Numbered from the stretch's first letter, positions 150 to 9,796 are shown. The stretch: 64,000 bases of DNA from Candidatus Brocadiia bacterium (GCA_050015075.1 JBEKCB010000019.1:1-64000); one strand, 5' to 3'. Program-made: numbers and translations. The notes: generated from the letters alone by a model not told the origin.

Positions 150-210
150 TTGACATCGCCCGCGCGCTGTGCTAAGTAATACGTTGTGATACGTATTACG
201 TAGTAATATT
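150..210 (+). promoter_or_regulatory. Sigma70-type promoter with overlapping GTAWTAC operator array (site 1)
   Basis: TTGACA 150-155, TG 170-171, TAAGTA 173-178 (17-bp spacer). Heptamers GTAATAC 176, GTGATAC 186, GTATTAC 193, GTAATAT 203. Same layout recurs at 5649-5692. Confidence 0.75.
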
Positions 211-254
211 ACCCGGGCCTCGGCGCCTTGTCTCCTTGGGAAGGATCGCGAATT

Positions 255-2552
255 ATGACGCGGCTATGGAGCCTCATACTGGCGTCGCTGGTGCTCATGC
301 TTACATGCCTTCAGGCCGCGGCCGACGAACCGGCAAACGCCCCTTCACCGAACGCAAGCGTGCCGCCGACTGCCGCTCCGTCGGCTGGAACCACTAACGC
401 GCCCGCACCGCCCGTTGCGGCGCCATCGGCCGAAACGACCAACCCGCCCGCACGGGCAACGCCGCCGCCTCCGGAAACCGCCGAGAACGAGACGCAACTG
501 CCCGAGATCAGCATCTACGGCCGACTGGACCATGCCCGCAACCAGATCCTGCCGAGTCTGGGGGCAACCTCCTACTCAATCAATGAGACGCAACTTGACC
601 AGATGTCACAAGGGGCGAATGCGCCGATGAACCAGGTGCTCCTGCGCGCGCCCGGCGTGGCTGAGGATTCGTTCGGGGGGCTGCACGTCCGGGGCGAACA
701 CGCGAACCTGCAGTACCGCATCAACGGTGTCATCATACCGGAAGGCATCACCGTTTTCGGACAGGAGCTCGATGCGAGATTCGTGGAGAGCATGGCGCTG
801 ACGACCGGTTCGCTGCCGGCCGAATACGGCTATCGCACGGCGGGAATCGTGGACATTCACACCAAGACCGGCGTCATCGAGCCCGGCGGCGAAGTGGGCG
901 TGCAACTCGGCACGTACGACACGGTGCGGCCGTTCGTCGAGTACGGCGGTTCCGACGGAAAGGTGACTTACTTCCTGGATGCAAGCTACGATCAGAACGG
1001 CAACGGGATCGAGAATCCCACGGACACCGAGGTCGCCGACCACGATAACACGGAGCAGTACAAGCTTTTTTCATACCTGTCGTACGTCCTGGACGACTCG
1101 AGCCGGATCAGCCTGATGATCAGCGCGACTCATGAAGATTTTCAGATCCCCGACACGCCGGGCCTGCCGCCGGGCACGCAGCCCAACGGCAATCCATGGC
1201 TGCCCGGGACGTTCAATTCCTCTCATCTCAACGAGAACCAATACGAGCAGAACTATTACGCGATCTTGAGCTACCAGAAAACCTTCGGGGACCTGGATTA
1301 TCAAATCTCCGGGTTCGGCCGCTACAGCAGCGCCCATTTCGTCCCCGACTCCGTCGGCGACCTTTTCTTTAACGGGGTGGCCAGCGACGTTAATCGCATG
1401 CTTTCCTCCGGCGGCGTCCAGGGCGATGGCAGTTACAAGCTCAACGATCAGCACACCCTGCGAGGCGGAATCCTGGTCGTGGATGAACTTCTGACCTCGG
1501 ACACGACCACCACAGTCTTTCCGGTGGACGGCGCCGGCAACGAGACGGGGCCGGCATTCCCCATCACGGACAACAACCATTCGCAGGCCTTGTTCGCGGG
1601 CATGTATTTGCAGGATGAGTGGAAGGTCACACCCAAGGTCACGATCAACTACGGCGGCCGCTTTGATATCTTCAACTCTTCCTTCGATAACGAGTATCAG
1701 TTCAGCCCGCGCGTGAATACCATCTACAAGCCCACCGACACCACGACGCTCCACGCGGGCTATGCCCGCTATTTCACGCCGCCGCCCTTGGAAAACGTGC
1801 CGACCTCGGGGGTGACGATATTCAACGGCACGTCGAATGCATCCGCGGTAACGCTGGACACTCCCGTCAAGGCCGAAAGCTCGGATTATGTCGACGCCGG
1901 GATTACTCACAAGTTCCTTCCCGGATTGCAGGGAGGCGTGGACGCCTATTACAAATGGGCCCACGAACAGATTGACGACGGTTTGTTCGGGCAGACGCTC
2001 ATTCCGTCCGCGTTCAACTATGAGAAGGGACAGGTTTATGGCGTGGAATTCGCAGGGTCGTATATCCAGGGCGGCCTGTCAACCTATGCCAACGTTGCGC
2101 TCTCCCAGGCAAAGGGCGAGAATTGGGACTCGGCCCAGTTTCTGTTCAATCCCGCCCAGTTGGCTTATGTCAAGAACAATTGGATCTATCTGGATCACGA
2201 CCAGAGCGTAACCGCCTCCGTCGGCGCTTCTTACACGTGGAAGAAAACGTTTGGCGGCGGCACGATGGCGTATGCCGACGTGCTTTTCGGAACCGGCCTG
2301 AGAGCGGATGAGGTGACCTCCAGCGGCGAAGTCATACCCAACGGCGATCATGTCCCCAGTTACTACTCCGCGAATGTGGGCGTGGAGCAGAAGTTCAAAG
2401 TGCACGACAAGCAATTCGTGAAGGTCCGTCTGGACATCGTGAACGTGACCGACAATTCGTACGAACTGCGCAACGGCACCGGCGTCGGCGTCAACGCCGC
2501 GCAATATGGCGCGCGGCGCGGCTTCTTCCTCACGCTGGCTTATGACTTTTAA
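255..2552 (+). CDS. TonB-dependent outer membrane receptor (probably metal uptake)
   Basis: Signal peptide, Pro/Ala/Thr linker, plug motif (HVRGEHANLQYRINGV...PAEYG...GIVDI), barrel motifs (YLQDEWK, NYGGRFD, FSPRV), C-terminal Phe; followed by tonB/exbB/exbD. ATG 255 preferred to TTG 228. Confidence 0.92.
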   Translation: MTRLWSLILASLVLMLTCLQAAADEPANAPSPNASVPPTAAPSAGTTNAPAPPVAAPSAETTNPPARATPPPPETAENETQLPEISIYGRLDHARNQILPSLGATSYSINETQLDQMSQGANAPMNQVLLRAPGVAEDSFGGLHVRGEHANLQYRINGVIIPEGITVFGQELDARFVESMALTTGSLPAEYGYRTAGIVDIHTKTGVIEPGGEVGVQLGTYDTVRPFVEYGGSDGKVTYFLDASYDQNGNGIENPTDTEVADHDNTEQYKLFSYLSYVLDDSSRISLMISATHEDFQIPDTPGLPPGTQPNGNPWLPGTFNSSHLNENQYEQNYYAILSYQKTFGDLDYQISGFGRYSSAHFVPDSVGDLFFNGVASDVNRMLSSGGVQGDGSYKLNDQHTLRGGILVVDELLTSDTTTTVFPVDGAGNETGPAFPITDNNHSQALFAGMYLQDEWKVTPKVTINYGGRFDIFNSSFDNEYQFSPRVNTIYKPTDTTTLHAGYARYFTPPPLENVPTSGVTIFNGTSNASAVTLDTPVKAESSDYVDAGITHKFLPGLQGGVDAYYKWAHEQIDDGLFGQTLIPSAFNYEKGQVYGVEFAGSYIQGGLSTYANVALSQAKGENWDSAQFLFNPAQLAYVKNNWIYLDHDQSVTASVGASYTWKKTFGGGTMAYADVLFGTGLRADEVTSSGEVIPNGDHVPSYYSANVGVEQKFKVHDKQFVKVRLDIVNVTDNSYELRNGTGVGVNAAQYGARRGFFLTLAYDF

Positions 2553-2568
2553 AGGACTCCGCTGCGAC

Positions 2569-3381
2569 ATGGAACTGAGCCGCAATTCGAAAACGATGAC
2601 TGACAAAGCGGCTATCGCCGCTGCGGAGGCCGACCTCTCGCAATTCTGCTTGGAGCCGGACCCTGCGGAGCCGAACCGCGTGCTGGCCTGGGTGAATTCC
2701 ATCTGCTTCATCTTCCTGGTGATCGGCGCACTAGGTCTCAAGCCGGCGGCGCCGGTCATCCATAGGGCGGCATCCGCCGGACTGGAAGCTGCGCCGACGG
2801 TCATCGAACCGCTGGTCACCACGGCCCAGACCGATGCCCCCAATCCTATTCCCAACGAGGCGCCGAGCGAGAAACCCGAAGAGAACAACGCGGCGGTCAT
2901 GGTGGCTTTGGATTCACCGGCCGTCGCGTTTTCCGTGCCGACGATCGGAAATCTTCTCGTGCCGCTGGCCATGGCTCCGGCGCCGCCGCCGAAGCCCATG
3001 GAAAGCGTCCAACCGCTCAGCGCGCCGCCCCGCGAACCGCTCGGCGCGTCCGATGCCGGAGCCGGCCGCCCGCCGCTTCCGCCGATGGTGCAACTGCCGC
3101 GCGTCGAGCAGATCAGGGCGACCGGGCTTGAGGGCAATCGTCCTGCGCCGCCTTATCCCGAGGAGTCGCTGGCGAACCGGGAAGAGGGCCGCGTGGTGCT
3201 GCTTATCGAAGTGGATGAATCCGGGAAGATCACTTCCGTAACGGTCAAGACTTCCTCCGGCCATCCGCAACTGGATTACGCGACCGCCGATTACGTGAAG
3301 CGGCACTGGCTTTTCGACTCCGCCGATCACCCGCGGAAGTTCGAAGCGCCGATTTCTTTTCACCTGACTGAGAATCAATAA
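2569..3381 (+). CDS. tonB: Energy transducer TonB family protein
   Basis: N-terminal TM, Pro-rich spacer, TonB_C motif PPYPEESLANREEGRVVLLIEVDESG...SSGHPQLD. Start uncertain (2569 or 2596). Confidence 0.85.
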   Translation: MELSRNSKTMTDKAAIAAAEADLSQFCLEPDPAEPNRVLAWVNSICFIFLVIGALGLKPAAPVIHRAASAGLEAAPTVIEPLVTTAQTDAPNPIPNEAPSEKPEENNAAVMVALDSPAVAFSVPTIGNLLVPLAMAPAPPPKPMESVQPLSAPPREPLGASDAGAGRPPLPPMVQLPRVEQIRATGLEGNRPAPPYPEESLANREEGRVVLLIEVDESGKITSVTVKTSSGHPQLDYATADYVKRHWLFDSADHPRKFEAPISFHLTENQ

Positions 3382-3400
3382 CCGGAGGAGAACATCTATC

Positions 3401-4045
3401 ATGGGAAATAATGTCGTTTCGCTCTTTCTGAAGGGCGGCCCGGTGATGTGGCCGATTCTGCTGTGCGCCTTGATCGCGGCGGCGGTTGTCGGCGAGCGCA
3501 CTTTCTGGTGGTGGTACGAATCGCGGCTGCGGGACCACAACGCGCTATTGAAGATCATGGATGCCCTGCATAAAGGCAACGTCAACGAGGCCGCCGGCTT
3601 GTCCAAGGGCTCCCGCGACCCGGTGATCCAGATGGTGTATCAGGGCCTGAGCGAACACGATTCGTGCTTCCAGGTCGCGATGCAGACCGCCGCGGGCGCC
3701 GTGCTGCGGCGCGCAGGCCGGTTTCTCCCGGTCATGGACACGCTGGTGACGCTGGCGCCGCTGCTGGGGCTGCTGGGGACGGTGACCGGGATCATGCGCT
3801 CGTTCACCTCCATCGGCAGCGCGGAGCTGGCCGTCGGCAAGGTCACCGGCGGCATCGGCGAGGCGCTGATCGCCACCGCCTGCGGCCTGTGCATCGCTAT
3901 CGTCTCACTGGTGCCGCTGAACTACTTCGGCGGGAAGGTGGCGGAATTGCAGTACGAACTGGAAACCAGCGCCTCGAACGTCGAGGTGCAGCTTAACCGC
4001 ATCCAAAGCCGTTCGCGCCAGGCCGACAATTCGAGCCGAGTTTAA
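3401..4045 (+). CDS. exbB: MotA/TolQ/ExbB proton channel protein
   Basis: GGPVMWPI, APLLGLLGTVTGIMRSF, GIGEALIATACGL; RBS GGAGGA upstream. Confidence 0.93.
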   Translation: MGNNVVSLFLKGGPVMWPILLCALIAAAVVGERTFWWWYESRLRDHNALLKIMDALHKGNVNEAAGLSKGSRDPVIQMVYQGLSEHDSCFQVAMQTAAGAVLRRAGRFLPVMDTLVTLAPLLGLLGTVTGIMRSFTSIGSAELAVGKVTGGIGEALIATACGLCIAIVSLVPLNYFGGKVAELQYELETSASNVEVQLNRIQSRSRQADNSSRV

Positions 4046-4076
4046 ATAACCGCGGCGCCGGCCGCAGGCGGGAACC

Positions 4077-4514
4077 ATGCGCATTCAGCCACCGACGCAT
4101 CGCAAGCACGCGCGGATCGAGATCATCCCGCTGATTGACATCATGTTTTTTCTGCTGGCCTCCTTCATGATGGTCAGCCTGGACATGACGAAGATCGAGA
4201 ACATCCGAGTGAACGTCCCTTCCGCCACCCAGGTGCAGAGCGACTTCGGCGCGGACTTGGTCCACATCGCGGTGGACAAGGACGGGAAGTGCTGGGTGGA
4301 GAAGCAGCCGATCGCGCTGCCCGATTTGTTCACGCTGCTGCAGAACCGGTTCCATCAGAACGCGCAACTGCCCGTTTACATCGGCGGCGACGCGGACACG
4401 CGCCACGGCGACATGGCGGCGGTGCTCGACCTCGTGCGCAGGGCGGGAATACAGAAGGTCGCATTCACCGTCACCGCCGAGGCGACGCCCGCTTCGGCCG
4501 GCGCGGGCGGCTGA
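4077..4514 (+). CDS. exbD: Biopolymer transporter ExbD (copy 1)
   Basis: IEIIPLIDIMFFLLASFMM TM with the conserved Asp; VYIGGD...VLDLVRRAGIQKVAF. Confidence 0.92.
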   Translation: MRIQPPTHRKHARIEIIPLIDIMFFLLASFMMVSLDMTKIENIRVNVPSATQVQSDFGADLVHIAVDKDGKCWVEKQPIALPDLFTLLQNRFHQNAQLPVYIGGDADTRHGDMAAVLDLVRRAGIQKVAFTVTAEATPASAGAGG

Positions 4515-4532
4515 TTCGCCCGTGGAGCTGCC

Positions 4533-4952
4533 ATGAAAATACTCTCGCCATTGCCCCGCAAGCGAGGACGGCTGGAGATCATCCCGCTGATAGATATCAT
4601 GTTCTTTCTGCTGGCTTCCTTCATGATGGTCAGCCTGACGATGCAGCATCTCATGAGCATCAGCGTCAGCCTGCCGACGGCCACGCAGGCGAAGTCCACC
4701 GCCAAGCCCGACATGATCGTCCTGACCGTTGACCGCTTCGGGCAGGTGTCCATGGACGGAAAGGCCATCTCGTTTCCCGACTTGTCCGCCCTGCTGAGCC
4801 AGCGCGCGGCCGCCGACCCGAATTATCCCGTATACATCCAGGGGCAGAAAGAAACCACTCACGCGTCCATGATCTACGTGCTCGACTTCGTGAAGCGCGC
4901 CGGCATCCAAAAAGTTGCCTTCTCCGTCAAACTCGCGCCATCCAACTTCTGA
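4533..4952 (+). CDS. exbD: Biopolymer transporter ExbD (copy 2)
   Basis: LEIIPLIDIMFFLLASFMM; VSLPTA; VLDFVKRAGIQKVAF. Confidence 0.92.
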   Translation: MKILSPLPRKRGRLEIIPLIDIMFFLLASFMMVSLTMQHLMSISVSLPTATQAKSTAKPDMIVLTVDRFGQVSMDGKAISFPDLSALLSQRAAADPNYPVYIQGQKETTHASMIYVLDFVKRAGIQKVAFSVKLAPSNF

Positions 4953-4960
4953 AGGCCACT

Positions 4961-5590
4961 ATGAAAAACCCGCTTCAATCCCTACTGATCGTCCTGGCCA
5001 TCGCCCTTTGCGGGCTCTGCACCTGGCAATGGTACGGCCAGATGCTGCAGCAGAAAAGGATGGACGCACTGGCCCAATCCAACTACGATCAGTCCGTGGC
5101 GATCCAAGGCTACGTGAGCTCGGTCAAGAAGATGGACGACCAGATCGCCCAGATGGACGCCCGCCTCACCGACCTGAGGGCCACCGTCAGCAGCGATGAC
5201 GACGTGATCTCGAAGCTGCGCGCCGAGAATACCCGCCTGACCGGTTCGGTCGAGCAGTATTCCAAAGTCCTCGCCGAGTTGGAAAGCCGTCTCAAGCAGG
5301 CGGACGAGGCGATCCGCCGCCAGGCCGACTCCCTGAAGGCCCTGGTGCAGGAGCGCGACGACTATGCCGACCGGCTGAACCAGAGCATCAAGGAACGCAA
5401 CGACACCGTCACGAAGTACAACGCCCTGGTGAAAGACTTCGAGACGGCGCAGAACGAACGCAACGACGTCGTCACGAAGTATAACGCGCTGGTGAAGCAG
5501 ATGGAGGCGTTGCAGAAGGAGCGCAACGACATCGTGGCCCAGTACAACGCGCTGGCGAAACAGCTCGAGGCGGCCCAGGCCGCAAAGTAG
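4961..5590 (+). CDS. Membrane-anchored coiled-coil protein with three 21-aa C-terminal repeats
   Basis: N-terminal hydrophobic anchor, heptad pattern, three ERNDxVxxYNALxK units; 8 bp after the second exbD. Confidence 0.8.
   Translation: MKNPLQSLLIVLAIALCGLCTWQWYGQMLQQKRMDALAQSNYDQSVAIQGYVSSVKKMDDQIAQMDARLTDLRATVSSDDDVISKLRAENTRLTGSVEQYSKVLAELESRLKQADEAIRRQADSLKALVQERDDYADRLNQSIKERNDTVTKYNALVKDFETAQNERNDVVTKYNALVKQMEALQKERNDIVAQYNALAKQLEAAQAAK
5393..5581 (+). repeat. Intragenic tandem repeat, 3 x 63 bp
   Basis: GARCGCAACGAC...TAYAACGCSCTGG units start at 5393, 5456 and 5519. Confidence 0.85.
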
Positions 5591-5648
5591 CCGCCCGGGG
5601 CGAGGCGATCAGCGCGCTCTCCTGCCATTCCTGCCCATGGGCGCCTTC

Positions 5649-5692
5649 TTGACATGCGCTGTGCCGTATGTTACGTATTACTGTGTAATATT
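5649..5692 (+). promoter_or_regulatory. Sigma70-type promoter with overlapping GTAWTAC operator (site 2)
   Basis: TTGACA 5649-5654, TG 5669-5670, TACGTA 5672-5677; GTATTAC 5675 and GTAATAT 5685. TACGTATTAC-N3-GTAATATT is identical to 190-210 apart from the N3. Confidence 0.75.
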
Positions 5693-5709
5693 TTTTGCAG
5701 GAGACGGCC

Positions 5710-7047
5710 ATGAAATTCATCGTGACGGCCTGTGTGGCTGGCGCGCTTGCGGCGCTGCCGGCGGCCTTCGGCCAGACGGCGGATGAGAAGCCGGCCCGGA
5801 TCAACGTGCTGGCCGCGGAGACGTTCATGGCGGACATCGCGCAGAACGTCGCCGGCGACCGGCTGCGCGTCGAGTCCATGATGTCGTTCGGCGTGGACCC
5901 GCACACCTACGAACCGTCGCCCGGCGATATCCGCAAGGTGGCGCGCTGCCAGGTGCTCATCGTGAACGGCGCAGGCTATGAAGAGTTTCAGGAGCGGCTG
6001 CTGCAGAACGCCGGCGGGGAACATTTCGTGATCGTGGCCTCCAAGGGCCTCACCAGCCGGAACGCCCGCGAGGGCGAAGTCGCGGAGATGAGCAACGAGG
6101 ACGCCGCCGAGGCGATAACCTCCTCCGCCGCCGGCCTGAAGCCGCAGCCGGTCGCCGCCGGGAAGGACGCCGCATCCGCGGCAGCCCTGCCCGAGGAATC
6201 GGGCCTGTTCACGGTCAAGCTGGTGAAGATGGCCGACGGTTCCTTCGGCGGATTCATCGCTTACGCGACGGATGAGACCGCCGATTTCCAGATCGCGGTC
6301 GGCGCAGGTGAAGCCAGGGTGCTCAAGGCCGGCGGCGCCGAAGCGAAGCCGGCCGAAAAGACGCTGTCGCTCAACGGCCCCGCTCTCAAGCGCGGATACG
6401 TCGTCGAGCTGGCGAAGGGCGATAAATACGTCCTGGCTTTGACCGGCTTCGGGTCGCCCGAGACGCCGCTGCTCATCGGCGCGTTCGGCGAAGCGCCCCT
6501 CCGCGGCGATCCGCACTTCTGGCTCGATCCGACCAACGTCATCCGCTACGTCCGCAACATCCGCGACGGGCTGAGCCAGGCCGATCCGGCCGGCGCGGCG
6601 ATCTACGCCGGAAATGCCAAAACCTACACCGCCGAACTGGAGAAGCTCGACGCCTGGGTCAAGGAGCAGGTCGCCCGCGTGCCGCCGGACCGCCGGATGC
6701 TCGTGACGAGCCACGACTGCTTCGGCTATTTCGCCGACCACTACGGCTTCCGGGTCATCGGCACGATCGTCCCCAGCGTGAGCACGGAGGCCGCGCCGTC
6801 GGCCCGGCAGATCGCCCGGCTGGTGGACCGCGTCCGCGCCGCTCACGCGCCGGCGATCTTCGTCGAACCTGAAACGAACCCGCAGTTGGCGCAGCAAGTC
6901 GCACGGGAGACCGGCGTGAAGGTCGTCATGGACCTCTACCTGGAGACTCTCTCTGATCAGGACGGCCCGGCGCCGACCTATATGAAAATGATGCGACATA
7001 ACGTGACGCGGATCGTCACCACACTGTTGGAGGGCGCCCCGAAATGA
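5710..7047 (+). CDS. znuA: Zn/Mn ABC transporter solute-binding protein (ZnuA/TroA family) with a ~150-aa insertion
   Basis: GVDPHTYEPSP, VNGAGYE, GDPHFWLDP, VTSHDCFGYFA, YLETL; cleavable signal peptide; RBS AGGAG. Metal specificity not proven. Confidence 0.88.
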   Translation: MKFIVTACVAGALAALPAAFGQTADEKPARINVLAAETFMADIAQNVAGDRLRVESMMSFGVDPHTYEPSPGDIRKVARCQVLIVNGAGYEEFQERLLQNAGGEHFVIVASKGLTSRNAREGEVAEMSNEDAAEAITSSAAGLKPQPVAAGKDAASAAALPEESGLFTVKLVKMADGSFGGFIAYATDETADFQIAVGAGEARVLKAGGAEAKPAEKTLSLNGPALKRGYVVELAKGDKYVLALTGFGSPETPLLIGAFGEAPLRGDPHFWLDPTNVIRYVRNIRDGLSQADPAGAAIYAGNAKTYTAELEKLDAWVKEQVARVPPDRRMLVTSHDCFGYFADHYGFRVIGTIVPSVSTEAAPSARQIARLVDRVRAAHAPAIFVEPETNPQLAQQVARETGVKVVMDLYLETLSDQDGPAPTYMKMMRHNVTRIVTTLLEGAPK

Positions 7048-7847
7048 AAGGCGCGACCGTCGCTGTGCCGCCGTCAGCGGAAACCGCCATGATCGAACTG
7101 GAAGGGCTCACCGTAAGGTACGACGGCAAGCCAGCGATCGAGGATCTGAACGTGCAGATTCCGGCCGGCGAGCGCGTGGCGCTCGTGGGGCCGAACGGCG
7201 CCGGGAAGTCCACTCTCTTCAAGGCCATCATCGGCCTTCTGCCGTTCCAGGGCTGCGTGCTGATCCACGGGCTGCCTTACGGCGACCACCAGGACTGCGT
7301 CGCCTACGTTCCGCAGCGCGAGGAGGTGGATTGGCGGTTCCCCGTGACGGTCACCGACGTCGTGATGATGGGCCGCTACGGACGGTTCGGCCGTCTGAGT
7401 TGGCCGCGCCGCGAGGACAAGGACGCCGTCGCGCGCGGCCTGGAGGAGATGGGCATCGCCGACCTCGCCGACCGGCCCATCTCGATGCTGTCGGGCGGTC
7501 AGCAGCAGCGGGTCTTCCTCGCGCGCGCGCTCGCCCAGGACCCGCACGTCATTCTCCTTGATGAGCCGTTCACGGGCGTGGACGTTCCGACTCAGCGGGC
7601 CACGCTCGCCCTCCTCGAGCGGCTGCACGCCCGCGGCGTCACCGTCTTCGCCTCCACGCACGATCTCGACCTCGCCGCGTCGCAATTCGAGCGCGTGCTG
7701 CTCATCAACGGCACGGTCATCGCCTGCGGCAAGCCGGCGGAGGTCTTCACGCACGAGAACGTCACCCGCGCATTCCAGGGAAAAGTCCTGATGGTCGGCG
7801 GCGCGATCGTCGTGGACCACTGTTATTCGCCCCATCTGCACGAGTAG
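7044..7847 (+). CDS. znuC: Metal ABC transporter ATP-binding protein
   Basis: GPNGAGKST, AYVPQ, LSGGQQQRVFLARAL, LLDEPF, STHD; His/Cys tail DHCYSPHLHE. Confidence 0.9.
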   Translation: MKGATVAVPPSAETAMIELEGLTVRYDGKPAIEDLNVQIPAGERVALVGPNGAGKSTLFKAIIGLLPFQGCVLIHGLPYGDHQDCVAYVPQREEVDWRFPVTVTDVVMMGRYGRFGRLSWPRREDKDAVARGLEEMGIADLADRPISMLSGGQQQRVFLARALAQDPHVILLDEPFTGVDVPTQRATLALLERLHARGVTVFASTHDLDLAASQFERVLLINGTVIACGKPAEVFTHENVTRAFQGKVLMVGGAIVVDHCYSPHLHE

Positions 7848-7861
7848 GAGACCCCCCAACG

Positions 7862-8752
7862 ATGGCGTGGATTCCGCACGCGCTGCACTTTCTGGCGACC
7901 TGCATCCGGGAACCGCTGCAATATCCGTTCATGGTGCGCGCCCTCCTGGCCGGCATGATCGTCGGCGTGCTGTGCGCGGTCATCGGGTGCTACGTTGTGC
8001 TTCGCTCCATGGCATTCCTGGGCGACGCGATGGCCCACGCCATTCTGCCGGGCGTGGCGGTGGCGTGCCTTCTCGGAAAAGATCTCGCCTACGGAGCGCT
8101 CGTCGCGGCGCTCACGGTGGCGCTGGGGCTGAGTTTCTTCACGCGGCGCGGCACGGTCAAGGAGGACACGGCAATCGGCATCCTGTTCGCCGGCGCCTTC
8201 TCGCTCGGAGTGGCCCTCATCAGCACGATGAAGTCCTACGCGGCGCGCAATCTGACGGAGATCCTGTTCGGCAACATCCTCGGCGTGGCGCCGAAGGACC
8301 TCTGGCGGCTCGCCATACTGGCCGTCATCGTGCTGAGCGCCATCCTCCTGTACTACCGGGAGTTCCTGGTGATCTCGTTCGACCCGATCTTGGCGCTGAC
8401 GCTGAAGCTGAAGACGGAGCGGCTGCAACTGCTCATGTTCGTCCTGCTGGCGCTGACGATCGTCGTATCGCTTCAGACGGTCGGCGTCGGCCTGGCCGCG
8501 GGTATGCTCGTCACGCCGGGCGCGGCGGCCTATCTGCTGGCGAGGCGGCTTCCGAGAATGATGGCGATCGCCGCGGTCATCGGCGTCGTATCGAGCGTCG
8601 TCGGCGCCTATGCGAGCTACTGGTTCGACGTCGCCTCCGGCGCGGCGATCGTCCTGGCGGCCACCGGGATTTTCTTCCTGGCATTTCTCTTCGCGCCGGG
8701 CCGCGGACTGGTGTGGCAGCGCGCTTCGGGCCGCAAGGCCCGCCGCGCATGA
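7862..8752 (+). CDS. znuB: Metal ABC transporter permease (ABC-3 family)
   Basis: FMVRAL, GDAMAHAILPGVA, EDTAIGI, LFGNIL, SFDP; multiple TMs. Confidence 0.9.
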   Translation: MAWIPHALHFLATCIREPLQYPFMVRALLAGMIVGVLCAVIGCYVVLRSMAFLGDAMAHAILPGVAVACLLGKDLAYGALVAALTVALGLSFFTRRGTVKEDTAIGILFAGAFSLGVALISTMKSYAARNLTEILFGNILGVAPKDLWRLAILAVIVLSAILLYYREFLVISFDPILALTLKLKTERLQLLMFVLLALTIVVSLQTVGVGLAAGMLVTPGAAAYLLARRLPRMMAIAAVIGVVSSVVGAYASYWFDVASGAAIVLAATGIFFLAFLFAPGRGLVWQRASGRKARRA

Positions 8753-8788
8753 GGCGAACGCAAGTGTTGGAACCCTGGAGGCTGTTTC

Positions 8789-9076
8789 ATGCCGAAGAAA
8801 ATCGAGGTCGTAACGTTCAAGGCCGATGAGGCGCTGCGCGATGCGATGAAAGGCATCTCGAACCGATCGGAGTTCATTCGCAGCGCCGTGCTTCACGCGC
8901 TCGAGAGCGTTTGCCCGCTCTGCAAGGGAAGCGGCATTCTCACGCCGAACCAGAAGCGCCACTGGGACGCGTTCGCCCGCGACCACCAGTTGAAGGAATG
9001 CGCCAACTGCCATGAATTCAGCCTGGTCTGCGCGAAGACGCCGCGCCACCGCGTCCATCGCGGGGCCGCTCATTGA
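8789..9076 (+). CDS. Ribbon-helix-helix (CopG/NikR-like) regulator with C-terminal Cys/His metal-binding domain
   Basis: Beta strand VVTFKAD, helices EALRDAM and NRSEFIRSAVLHAL; then CPLC...H...H..ECANCH....C; RBS GGAGG. Confidence 0.82.
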   Translation: MPKKIEVVTFKADEALRDAMKGISNRSEFIRSAVLHALESVCPLCKGSGILTPNQKRHWDAFARDHQLKECANCHEFSLVCAKTPRHRVHRGAAH

Positions 9077-9114
9077 TTTGGCGTGGCGCCTGTGATAAAC
9101 TTACTCCACCGGAT

Positions 9115-9192
9115 GGTGAGAGTAGCTCAGTTGGTTAGAGCATCAGACTGTGGCTCTGAGGGTCGCGGGTTCGAATCCCGTCTCTCACCCCA
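9115..9192 (+). tRNA. tRNA-His (GTG)
   Basis: 8-bp acceptor stem GGTGAGAG/CTCTCACC including G-1, anticodon arm TCAGA-CTGTGGC-TCTGA, GGTTCGAATCC, encoded CCA. Confidence 0.97.
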
Positions 9193-9415
9193 ACGTATAA
9201 AAGCCGCTGCTGCCGGGGCACAGTGGCATCCGGCGAGGTGGCAGGCCGGTGTTCCTGATGGGCGGGTTTTGGCGGTTTTCGTCTTTCCTTGCGCGGGCCG
9301 GCGCCTGAAATTCAATTCAACTCGCAGACGAAAAGGCTCCACGTGCGGTTGGGGCGCGTGCTGTCTTCGCCAGGACCGGCGAGGTCCAGGATAGCGAAAG
9401 GAAAGGGGGCGCACC

Positions 9416-9796
9416 GTGAAGATCTTCGCGAGGTGGCCGGTTGGAATCGCAGCCGCAGCATGCGTGCTGGCAGCCGCCGCCATGATCGGCCTGGGGCAGA
9501 CGGAGCGCGCGCATCCGCTGGCGGCCACGTGGGAGTACGGCAGGCTTGTGGTGAATCTCGGCGAGAAAGAAACGAGCACTTGGACGCAAACGAATGGCGA
9601 CTTGATCGAGGACAGCTTGCAGAACCTGGGCCAGAGCTACCGTAAGCAGCATCCATCCGCCACAAATGTCGCCAATCCGGACCCCGAGATGGACGTGCTC
9701 TCGGCCATCGGCGCGTCCGGCTGGGAACTCGTCGCCATGCAGACCCGTGACAATGCCCGGTGGTTTTACTTCAAGCGAATCGCGCAGGCATACTAA
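9416..9796 (+). CDS. Small exported protein (DUF4177-like)
   Basis: Signal-like N-terminus; WEY...LSAIGASGWELVA...FYFKR pattern. Confidence 0.6.
   Translation: MKIFARWPVGIAAAACVLAAAAMIGLGQTERAHPLAATWEYGRLVVNLGEKETSTWTQTNGDLIEDSLQNLGQSYRKQHPSATNVANPDPEMDVLSAIGASGWELVAMQTRDNARWFYFKRIAQAY

Follow-up and report, generated by a model that had tools for sequence, protein, structure and literature searches.

A putative ribbon-helix-helix protein of 95 residues with a Cys/His domain as a candidate metal-dependent repressor of metal uptake in Candidatus Brocadiia and other uncultured bacteria

The DNA studied here, a stretch of 64,000 nucleotides (nt) from a Candidatus Brocadiia bacterium (GCA_050015075.1 JBEKCB010000019.1:1-64000, called the window below), is contig C19 of a 4.64-Mb genome (4,643,879 bases, 65% G+C, 66 contigs, 93.6% complete), and it is also present in DNA contigs of peat and wetland metagenomes. 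Two transcription units lie near its beginning (Table 1). The first runs from a TonB-dependent receptor gene through tonB, exbB and two copies of exbD to a gene for a coiled-coil protein; the second consists of znuA, znuC and znuB, followed by a gene for a 95-residue protein with a putative ribbon-helix-helix (RHH) module and a Cys/His domain. An earlier annotation of the window (the original prediction) had proposed that this small protein is a metal-sensing co-repressor of outer- and inner-membrane uptake and of itself. The comparative evidence described below suggests that it is an autoregulated RHH repressor, local to its operon, with zinc as the probable co-repressor, a reading to which we assign a probability of about 0.6.

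The two units start with the same promoter layout. In both, a TG lies one base before the -10 hexamer, and the first heptamers (GTAATAC at 176-182 and GTATTAC at 5675-5681) each begin 26 nt downstream of the first T in TTGACA; the second heptamers start 10 nt later and read GTGATAC at 186-192, with G for A at position 3, and GTAATAT at 5685-5691. This arrangement, as stated in the original prediction, was read back at both promoters, both of which fit TTGACA-N14-TGnTAnGTAWTAC. It had been overlooked that promoter 1 contains four heptamers, which make up two 17-bp units side by side (176-192 and 193-209). A near-identical unit, GTATTAC-N3-GTAATAT, stands at 193-209 and at 5675-5691. Each heptamer is its own reverse complement except for the central W, and both orientations occur. 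The pattern GTAWTAYNNNGTAWTAY (GTAWTAY-N3-GTAWTAY) matched the window twice and none of 100 shuffles matched; the same numbers were obtained with the 33-nt composite TTGACA-N14-TGNTANGTAWTAC. When the whole genome was scanned with a weight matrix derived from the sites of other species, scores of at least 13 bits were obtained at three places only (C19:175-209, C19:5674-5691 and C1:128517-128534, the last with 25 bits), the next best score being 11.3 bits. That the two sites in the window are promoters is suggested by their perfect -35 hexamers, the TG and their position before genes.

Homologous loci were then compared, namely the 80 best out of at least 550 species-level loci. All 80 come from metagenome-assembled genomes, as does the material of the whole study, and no cultured carrier of the gene was identified among the loci listed. 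They are labelled as Planctomycetota (Brocadiia, Phycisphaerae, Planctomycetia), Zixibacteria, Ignavibacteria, Spirochaetota, Deltaproteobacteria/Thermodesulfobacteriota, Nitrospiraceae, Verrucomicrobiota and Anaerolineales; related genomes in this sample are not independent. A weight matrix was trained by iteration on the 300-nt regions preceding the gene, and 10 bits was taken as the threshold for a site. Sites above it were found within 300 nt upstream in 75 of the 80 loci, with the consensus GTAWTAC-N3-GTAWTAW, although this sensitivity is circular, the matrix having been trained on the same upstream regions, and only the specificity elsewhere is independent. With that limit, the expectation in the original prediction that GTAWTAC-N3-GTAWTAY would be recovered upstream of homologues was borne out. 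At 14 bits or more, 127 matches were counted in 1,010,235 bases of flanking DNA (both strands), and 125 of these, spread over 74 loci, fell within the 300 nt preceding the gene; the remaining two belong to the znuA promoter of locus L003, which is part of genome G201. An upstream site is missing from L003, where the site is at the znuA promoter as in the window, and from four loci in which the gene has HAD or GAF-HD genes as neighbours. L003, labelled Candidatus Brocadiia, holds the closest public relative of the 95-residue protein (89% identity).

The position of the operator relative to the promoter is also conserved. A TTGACA-like box lies within 40 nt in 47 loci; in 40 of these the first heptamer follows the box by 9-12 nt, which makes the second one (TAWTAW) fall on the -10 element. 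The layout of the window, in which the operator is shifted downstream by one unit, recurs in G201, where both promoters, including the four heptamers, are kept. The pairing of regulator and operator is well supported.

Linkage was determined by tblastn of the window proteins against the same 80 loci. Znu genes adjoin the regulator gene on the same strand in 62 of them (52 with A, B and C, six with A and C, two with A only, two with B and C), and the regulator is the first gene, followed by znuA-znuC-znuB, in all Znu-linked loci except L003. In nine further loci the place of znuACB directly downstream of the regulator is taken by a His-rich membrane protein of 212-265 residues. This protein spans the membrane several times, is rich in His at its termini or in loops, and has the conserved motifs HAPFT, PHxGHV and WxPCC; it belongs to no Pfam family or named Atlas cluster, and is a candidate for a new metal permease or transporter. 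These two groups agree with the proposal in the original prediction that homologues would be linked to metal transport. One locus ends at a contig edge within 400 nt of the regulator gene, and the remaining eight have other neighbours: one has a HAD hydrolase, three loci from spirochaetes have a GAF-HD protein, and in four neither a Znu nor a His-rich match was found (L027, L044, L066 and L077, two of which have less than 600 nt downstream of the gene). When all open reading frames (ORFs) around the gene were clustered across the 80 loci, no upstream neighbour was common to more than five, and therefore the 95-residue protein is the only conserved candidate DNA binder.

Whether the motif goes with this gene or with a Fur-family gene can be read from a sample of 201 genomes drawn evenly from the phylum. 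Ten are strong carriers (relative at E 3e-37 or better), seven have a distant relative only (E 1e-11 to 1e-14) and 184 have no relative. The exact pattern GTAWTACNNNGTAWTAH was present in all ten strong carriers, at the operon promoter in the window genome and 42-114 nt before the gene in the nine others; it was found in none of the seven carriers of the distant subfamily and in 14 of the 184 remaining genomes. The reversed pattern, used as a control, matched in 21 of the 201 genomes, with no strong carrier among them, and the frequency of the motif in genomes without a relative is thus about the control rate. A Fur-family match was missing in 27 of the 201 genomes, namely in 4/10 strong carriers (G007, G139, G162 and G179, 85-96% complete) versus 23/191 others. 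Computation shows that gene, operator and transporter are associated, independently of Fur-family genes, as the original prediction had expected in proposing that the motif tracks the RHH gene and not Zur.

No Fur or DtxR gene was found in the window, in agreement with the original prediction; elsewhere in the genome there are Fur-family matches on contigs C2 and C3 and DtxR-family genes on C32 and C12. The only full-length Fur-family protein of the genome has PerR as its best match (B. subtilis PerR, E 1.4e-20), with Zur models scoring lower. The second Fur-family match consists of the N-terminal winged-helix part only, 96 residues (C3:144304-144594, which is L002:1459-1749, minus strand), and adjoins a ferritin-like gene. 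The Bacillus-type Zur box (TCGTAAT-N-ATTACGA) was considered for the motif and rejected, given the 7-3-7 spacing, the self-palindromic heptamers and the presence of the motif where a Fur-family gene is missing. It is very unlikely that the motif is a Zur box.

The size of the regulon was estimated by searching 14 other carrier genomes with exact or slightly relaxed patterns. The nine carriers of the phylum sample have a single site each, at the regulator's own promoter, and the same holds for G202 and G205. G201 has two promoter sites, as in the window genome; G204 has the own-promoter site plus one extra site; in G203 no match to the exact pattern was found, its site being a CTAATAC variant. 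The single own-promoter site in most carriers suggests that the 95-residue protein is mostly a local regulator of its own operon, to which the receptor/TonB unit would be a lineage-specific addition. Where an exact-pattern site was found in other carrier genomes, the promoter of the znu operon had the sole one in 8 of 10. The original prediction, which had both outer- and inner-membrane uptake under this control, would thus hold in most species for the znu operon, and for the receptor operon only in this lineage, seen in the window and in its close relative G201.

The third site of the window genome (C1:128517-128534, which is L083:5018-5035) lies 329 nt after the stop codon of parB and about 190 nt before a lipoprotein-like ORF of 189 residues. 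The extra site of G204 (C1:3258101-3258117, which is L084:3502-3518) is about 140 nt before parB, beside a parS-like TGTTTCACATGAAACA. Adjacency to parB as a general feature was rejected: no site was near parB in five of the seven carrier genomes examined, and in five non-carrier genomes the pattern matches were far from parB. In the window genome and G204 we take it for coincidence.

The 95-residue protein itself has the Cys/His pattern C42xxC45...C71xxC74H75...C81, as originally described. A putative RHH module (residues ~5-39) is followed by a Cys/His domain of ~45 residues. No Pfam or NCBIfam family matched the protein above threshold. The NCBIfam model for the RHH protein aCcr1 matched with E 5.3e-5 (23 bits, cut-off 60), and a weak match to RHH_1 was obtained in 78 of 98 family members, the best with E 4.1e-4. 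Residues N25-R26-S27-E28-F29-I30-R31, which are invariant or nearly so, align to positions 20-38 of RHH_1. The DnaJ CXXCXGXG family (PF00684) matched with 15.8 bits (E 0.017, cut-off 32.7) and weakly in 94 of the 98 members. In the AlphaFold2 (AF2) model (pLDDT 82.7) an extended N-terminus is followed by helices 14-19 and 26-39, a helix at 53-63 and a hairpin (66-70/77-81); C42 and C45 form a knuckle, and C71 and C74 are borne on the hairpin. The order of elements is strand-helix-helix, with the strand itself not called in the monomer model. RHH proteins also have a conserved turn and a helix-B N-terminus in contact with phosphate, and they are obligate dimers whose two strands make up the sheet that reads the DNA. 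It is plausible from this model that helices 14-19 and 26-39 are the RHH helices and that the protein is structurally a member of the RHH class. A predicted dimer with zinc scored 0.36 against a mark of 0.42 and was used as evidence neither way. The ESM Atlas neighbours, 30 clusters, share no common Pfam family.

The family comprises 481 clusters at 90% identity. A set of 1.84 billion proteins yielded 347 representatives at 50% identity, including 165 with E 1e-10 or better. The identity of members to the window protein is 55-90%. Across 98 aligned core members the invariant residues include F10, K11, N25, R26, S27, F29, I30 and R31 in the N-terminal module, and C42, P43, C45, G49, H58, W59, H66, C71 and C74 after it; T9, E28, H75 and C81 are conserved in at least 90%. 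Among 78 diverse relatives, with identities down to 24%, only C42, C45, C71, C74 and the RHH core reach at least 90% conservation. A few unusual forms were seen: P0123, a protein of 3179 residues with 38 repeats of a CxxCxGxG-containing stretch; P0124, a 185-residue tandem double of the whole 95-residue-type protein; and P0273, 419 residues, which joins the regulator to a ZnuA domain and is probably a merged gene call. Apart from P0273 the protein was found standing alone, in a search that is weak evidence on fused forms. The distant subfamily, present in 7/201 genomes of the phylum sample, has TFR for TFK and an extra C-terminal CxxC and His (L088:3461-3802, L089:~3575-3904, L090:3496-3888 and L091:~3520-3846). 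Its genes are not adjacent to Znu genes and are without the exact operator pattern; the one in L091 adjoins a gene for a MerC-like membrane protein and has GTATTACCATGTAATGC upstream.

Pfam confirmed the original gene order, and a ZnuA-type binding protein occurs together with an ABC-3 permease and an ABC ATPase, which places the importer among the cluster A-I metal ABC importers. The coiled-coil protein belongs to no family and is 90% identical to its counterpart in L003. Between znuB and the gene of the 95-residue protein there are 36 nt, containing GGAGG. A tRNA-His (GTG) gene at 9116-9192, 40 nt past the regulator gene, marks the end of the unit.

Table 1. Features of the two transcription units in the window, and His-rich membrane protein genes found next to the regulator gene in other loci
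Feature	Position	Strand	Basis or remark
-35 hexamer TTGACA, promoter 1	150..155	+	read directly; part of 33-nt composite
Extended -10 TGcTAAGTA, promoter 1 (putative)	170..178	+	TG 170-171, hexamer TAAGTA 173-178
Operator unit 1a, GTAATAC-GTT-GTGATAC	176..192	+	15.6 bits, matrix from other species' sites; layout kept in G201
Operator unit 1b, GTATTAC-GTA-GTAATAT	193..209	+	21.1 bits; exact pattern match
TonB-dependent outer-membrane receptor	255..2552 (ATG 255; ORF opens at TTG 228)	+	PF00593, 95 bits
TonB	2506..3381	+	PF03544, 58.5 bits
ExbB	3401..4045	+	PF01618, 93.5 bits
ExbD, first copy	4077..4514	+	PF02472, 86.7 bits
ExbD, second copy	4533..4952	+	PF02472, 96 bits
Coiled-coil protein, 209 residues, last gene of unit 1	4961..5590	+	sub-threshold coiled-coil matches only
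-35 hexamer TTGACA, promoter 2	5649..5654	+	read directly; part of 33-nt composite
Extended -10 TGtTACGTA, promoter 2 (putative)	5669..5677	+	TG 5669-5670, hexamer TACGTA 5672-5677
Operator unit 2, GTATTAC-TGT-GTAATAT	5675..5691	+	20.0 bits; identical 17-mer at G201 znuA promoter
ZnuA-type periplasmic metal-binding protein, 445 residues	5710..7047	+	PF01297, 283.8 bits
ZnuC ATPase	7044..7847	+	PF00005, 103.5 bits
ZnuB permease	7862..8752	+	PF00950, 258.5 bits
95-residue RHH and Cys/His zinc-ribbon protein, proposed repressor	8789..9076	+	family alignment, weak profile matches, AF2 model
His-rich membrane protein	L012:~8540-9436
His-rich membrane protein	L015:1271-1909
His-rich membrane protein	L017:469-1167
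His-rich membrane protein	L022:8284-8922
His-rich membrane protein	L032:~619-1206
His-rich membrane protein	L038:8330-8560		cut
His-rich membrane protein	L040:~556-1173
His-rich membrane protein	L061:767-1564
His-rich membrane protein	L065:8305-8958

Indications about the metal come mainly from the binding protein. The third ligand is Glu in manganese-specific relatives and His in the zinc or TroA types. The window ZnuA has His at all three ligand positions examined, and the third position is His in the linked ZnuA of 59 of the 61 alignable loci. Among NCBIfam models the window protein scored 268.8 bits with AztC, a zinc-binding protein (cut-off 350), and 75.4 bits with ZnuA (cut-off 268). It contains an insert of ~160 residues (~100-262), rich in Ala, Gly and Glu and free of histidine. 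Zinc is our best guess for the metal, in view of the His at the third ligand position and the His-rich alternative partner of the regulator.

The mechanism that we infer comprises an RHH fold, binding as a dimer of dimers, repression, and sensing of metal, presumably zinc. Two RHH dimers would sit side by side on the two 7-bp palindromic subsites GTAWTAC, the centres of which are 10 bp apart, so that the dimers would be on one face of the DNA helix; by precedent from other RHH proteins, GTA/TAC would be recognised by T9 and K11, located on the strand. In both the receptor-tonB-exbBDD-coiled coil and the znuACB-regulator units the operators would extend over the -10 region and the likely start of transcription, so that bound protein would block RNA polymerase, and importer, receptor unit and the regulator's own gene would be repressed. 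C42, C45, C71 and C74 may form a structural zinc ribbon, whereas H58, H66, H75 and C81, conserved only in the Znu-linked core subfamily, may form a second, exchangeable, sensory site. With plentiful zinc the second site would be filled and affinity for DNA would rise, zinc acting as co-repressor by the same logic as with Zur and NikR. The metal-loaded form is taken as the repressing one because of the position of the operator and the logic of uptake control.

Several observations weigh against the proposal of a zinc-dependent autorepressor. A consensus promoter scan called neither promoter of the window, because the -10 hexamers are poor. RHH_1 scored 14.4 bits with the window protein, below its cut-off of 20.5; a Foldseek search of the AF2 monomer against the PDB returned nothing below E 1, and a profile search of the PDB returned only anti-TRAP (E 0.021), with no solved structure matched. 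At L019, L029, L039 and L063 the gene occurs without the motif or metal genes, and the third site of the window genome is not beside metal genes, in a segment absent from the closest relative. Six of the ten carriers, among them the window genome, have one or more Fur-family genes, and the window genome has two DtxR-family genes, so that co-regulation by another sensor may occur in some carriers. Furthermore, H58, H66, H75 and C81 are not kept in distant relatives, and they may be structural for the subfamily instead of sensory. In a rival explanation the protein binds GTAWTAC and regulates itself, yet is no metal sensor: all Cys and His residues would be structural, the protein would be a constitutive damper or respond to another signal, and control by zinc would come from elsewhere. 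The evidence on regulator and operator fits this explanation equally well, only the four ribbon cysteines are kept family-wide, and many small RHH proteins are plain autorepressors. We nevertheless consider it rather unlikely, since the invariant H58, W59 and H66 and the near-invariant H75 and C81 of the Znu-linked subfamily go beyond the requirements of a four-Cys ribbon, the gene is linked in different phyla to hardly anything but metal importers, and four of the ten carriers have no Fur-family sensor that could supply the zinc control.

A mechanism identical to the proposed one could also operate with manganese, iron, cobalt or nickel as effector and transported metal. The scores of the window ZnuA with AztC (zinc, 268.8 bits) and MntC (manganese, 261.4 bits) are near equal and both below the cut-off, the protein lacks a His-rich loop, its histidine-free insert sitting where many ZnuA have one, and TroA-type proteins, with three His and one Asp, bind several metals. 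Yet His, not Glu, is the third ligand in 59/61 linked binding proteins, the alternative partner is a His-rich membrane protein, and a sensory site made of Cys and His favours zinc over manganese on grounds of coordination chemistry, so that we give another metal a low probability. We attach hardly any credence to the explanation that another regulator, namely Zur, a different Fur-family protein or DtxR/TroR, owns the motif, with the 95-residue protein as a zinc-finger helper of the transporter or an antitoxin-like protein. In its favour are the one full-length Fur-family gene and the two DtxR-family genes, on other contigs, of the window genome, and the weak resemblance of the 95-residue protein to the DnaJ/anti-TRAP zinc motif. 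Against it, the motif follows the gene in 10/10 carriers and is at background level in non-carriers, four carriers have no Fur-family match, the identical motif occurs in several phyla whose Fur boxes differ, the self-palindromic heptamers in 7-3-7 arrangement differ from the 7-1-7 boxes of the Fur type, and no other neighbour gene is conserved.

About a dozen structural families of metal sensors are distinguished in bacteria, and the known regulators of zinc uptake are Zur (Fur family) and AdcR/ZitR (MarR family). A search of full texts found no paper on an RHH regulator of zinc uptake, and the statement in the original prediction that it knew of no characterised regulator with such an architecture agrees with the searches of Pfam, NCBIfam, the PDB and the literature. 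The proposed repressor would resemble Zur as a zinc-loaded repressor of znuABC and zinc TonB receptors with a structural Cys4 zinc site plus a sensory site (here proposed), but Zur consists of a winged helix and a dimerisation domain (PF01475, no match in the 95-residue protein), and it has a 7-1-7 box and usually a wider regulon, whereas here the only site found is usually the one of the own operon. The accessible part of a 2024 review of metallostasis (PMC11672702) names no RHH metal sensor other than NikR, the nickel-responsive repressor of nikABCDE. Like NikR, the 95-residue protein would combine an N-terminal RHH module with a C-terminal metal domain, and a metal would act as co-repressor of an ABC importer through an operator that overlaps the promoter. 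NikR differs by NikR_C, an ACT-like domain of ~80 residues for nickel binding and tetramerisation, in contrast to the Cys/His ribbon of ~45 residues; no match to NikR_C was found in the 95-residue protein, the C-terminal part of which has ~55 residues, even at E up to 10. The half-sites of NikR are 16 bp apart, in contrast to self-palindromic heptamers 10 bp apart, and the metal inferred here is other than nickel.

According to the abstract of PMC6372160, AdcR/ZitR are zinc co-repressors of the ZnuA-like Adc importer in non-Zur lineages, often in the same operon. The 95-residue protein would share with them the role of a zinc-uptake repressor that does without Zur and is often encoded in the importer operon; they differ in their winged-helix MarR fold, their size of about 150 residues and their operator. 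Arc, MetJ, CopG and omega are likewise small, and as dimers they bind co-operatively to short neighbouring subsites; omega recognises heptads of 7 bp in either direct or inverted orientation, comparable to the mixed GTAATAC/GTATTAC orientations found here. A Cys/His metal domain is absent from all of them, and the only ligand used is the S-adenosylmethionine of MetJ. The likeness to DnaJ and anti-TRAP consists of the stretch C42-P-L-C45-K-G47-S-G49, which fits CXXCXGXG, and of anti-TRAP being the best PDB sequence match. The differences are that a single motif is combined here with CxxCH, where the DnaJ-type zinc centre has paired motifs, that the matches are far below the cut-offs, and that those proteins do not bind DNA.

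If sensing is confirmed, the family would be one of metal-dependent repressors and a new family of metalloregulators. At even odds, in our estimate, stands the wider claim that the protein is the founding example of a metal-sensing family defined by RHH module, Cys4 ribbon, His3Cys site and tandem GTAWTAC, which has taken over zinc control from Zur in more than 500 species of Planctomycetota, Zixibacteria, Ignavibacteria, Spirochaetota, Thermodesulfobacteriota and further phyla and in some lineages also controls the His-rich permease. The protein pattern TFK...NRSEFIR...CPxCxGxG...HW...H...CxxCH...C and the operator GTAWTAC-N3-GTAWTAW would then serve as annotation markers, and with both of them zinc regulons would become predictable in metagenome-assembled genomes. 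The small protein and its simple 17-bp operator could be used as a zinc-responsive switch. If the reading is true, the 95-residue protein would represent a new and very compact solution for the control of zinc uptake, and would explain how zinc import is controlled in many uncultured lineages without a Fur-family gene.

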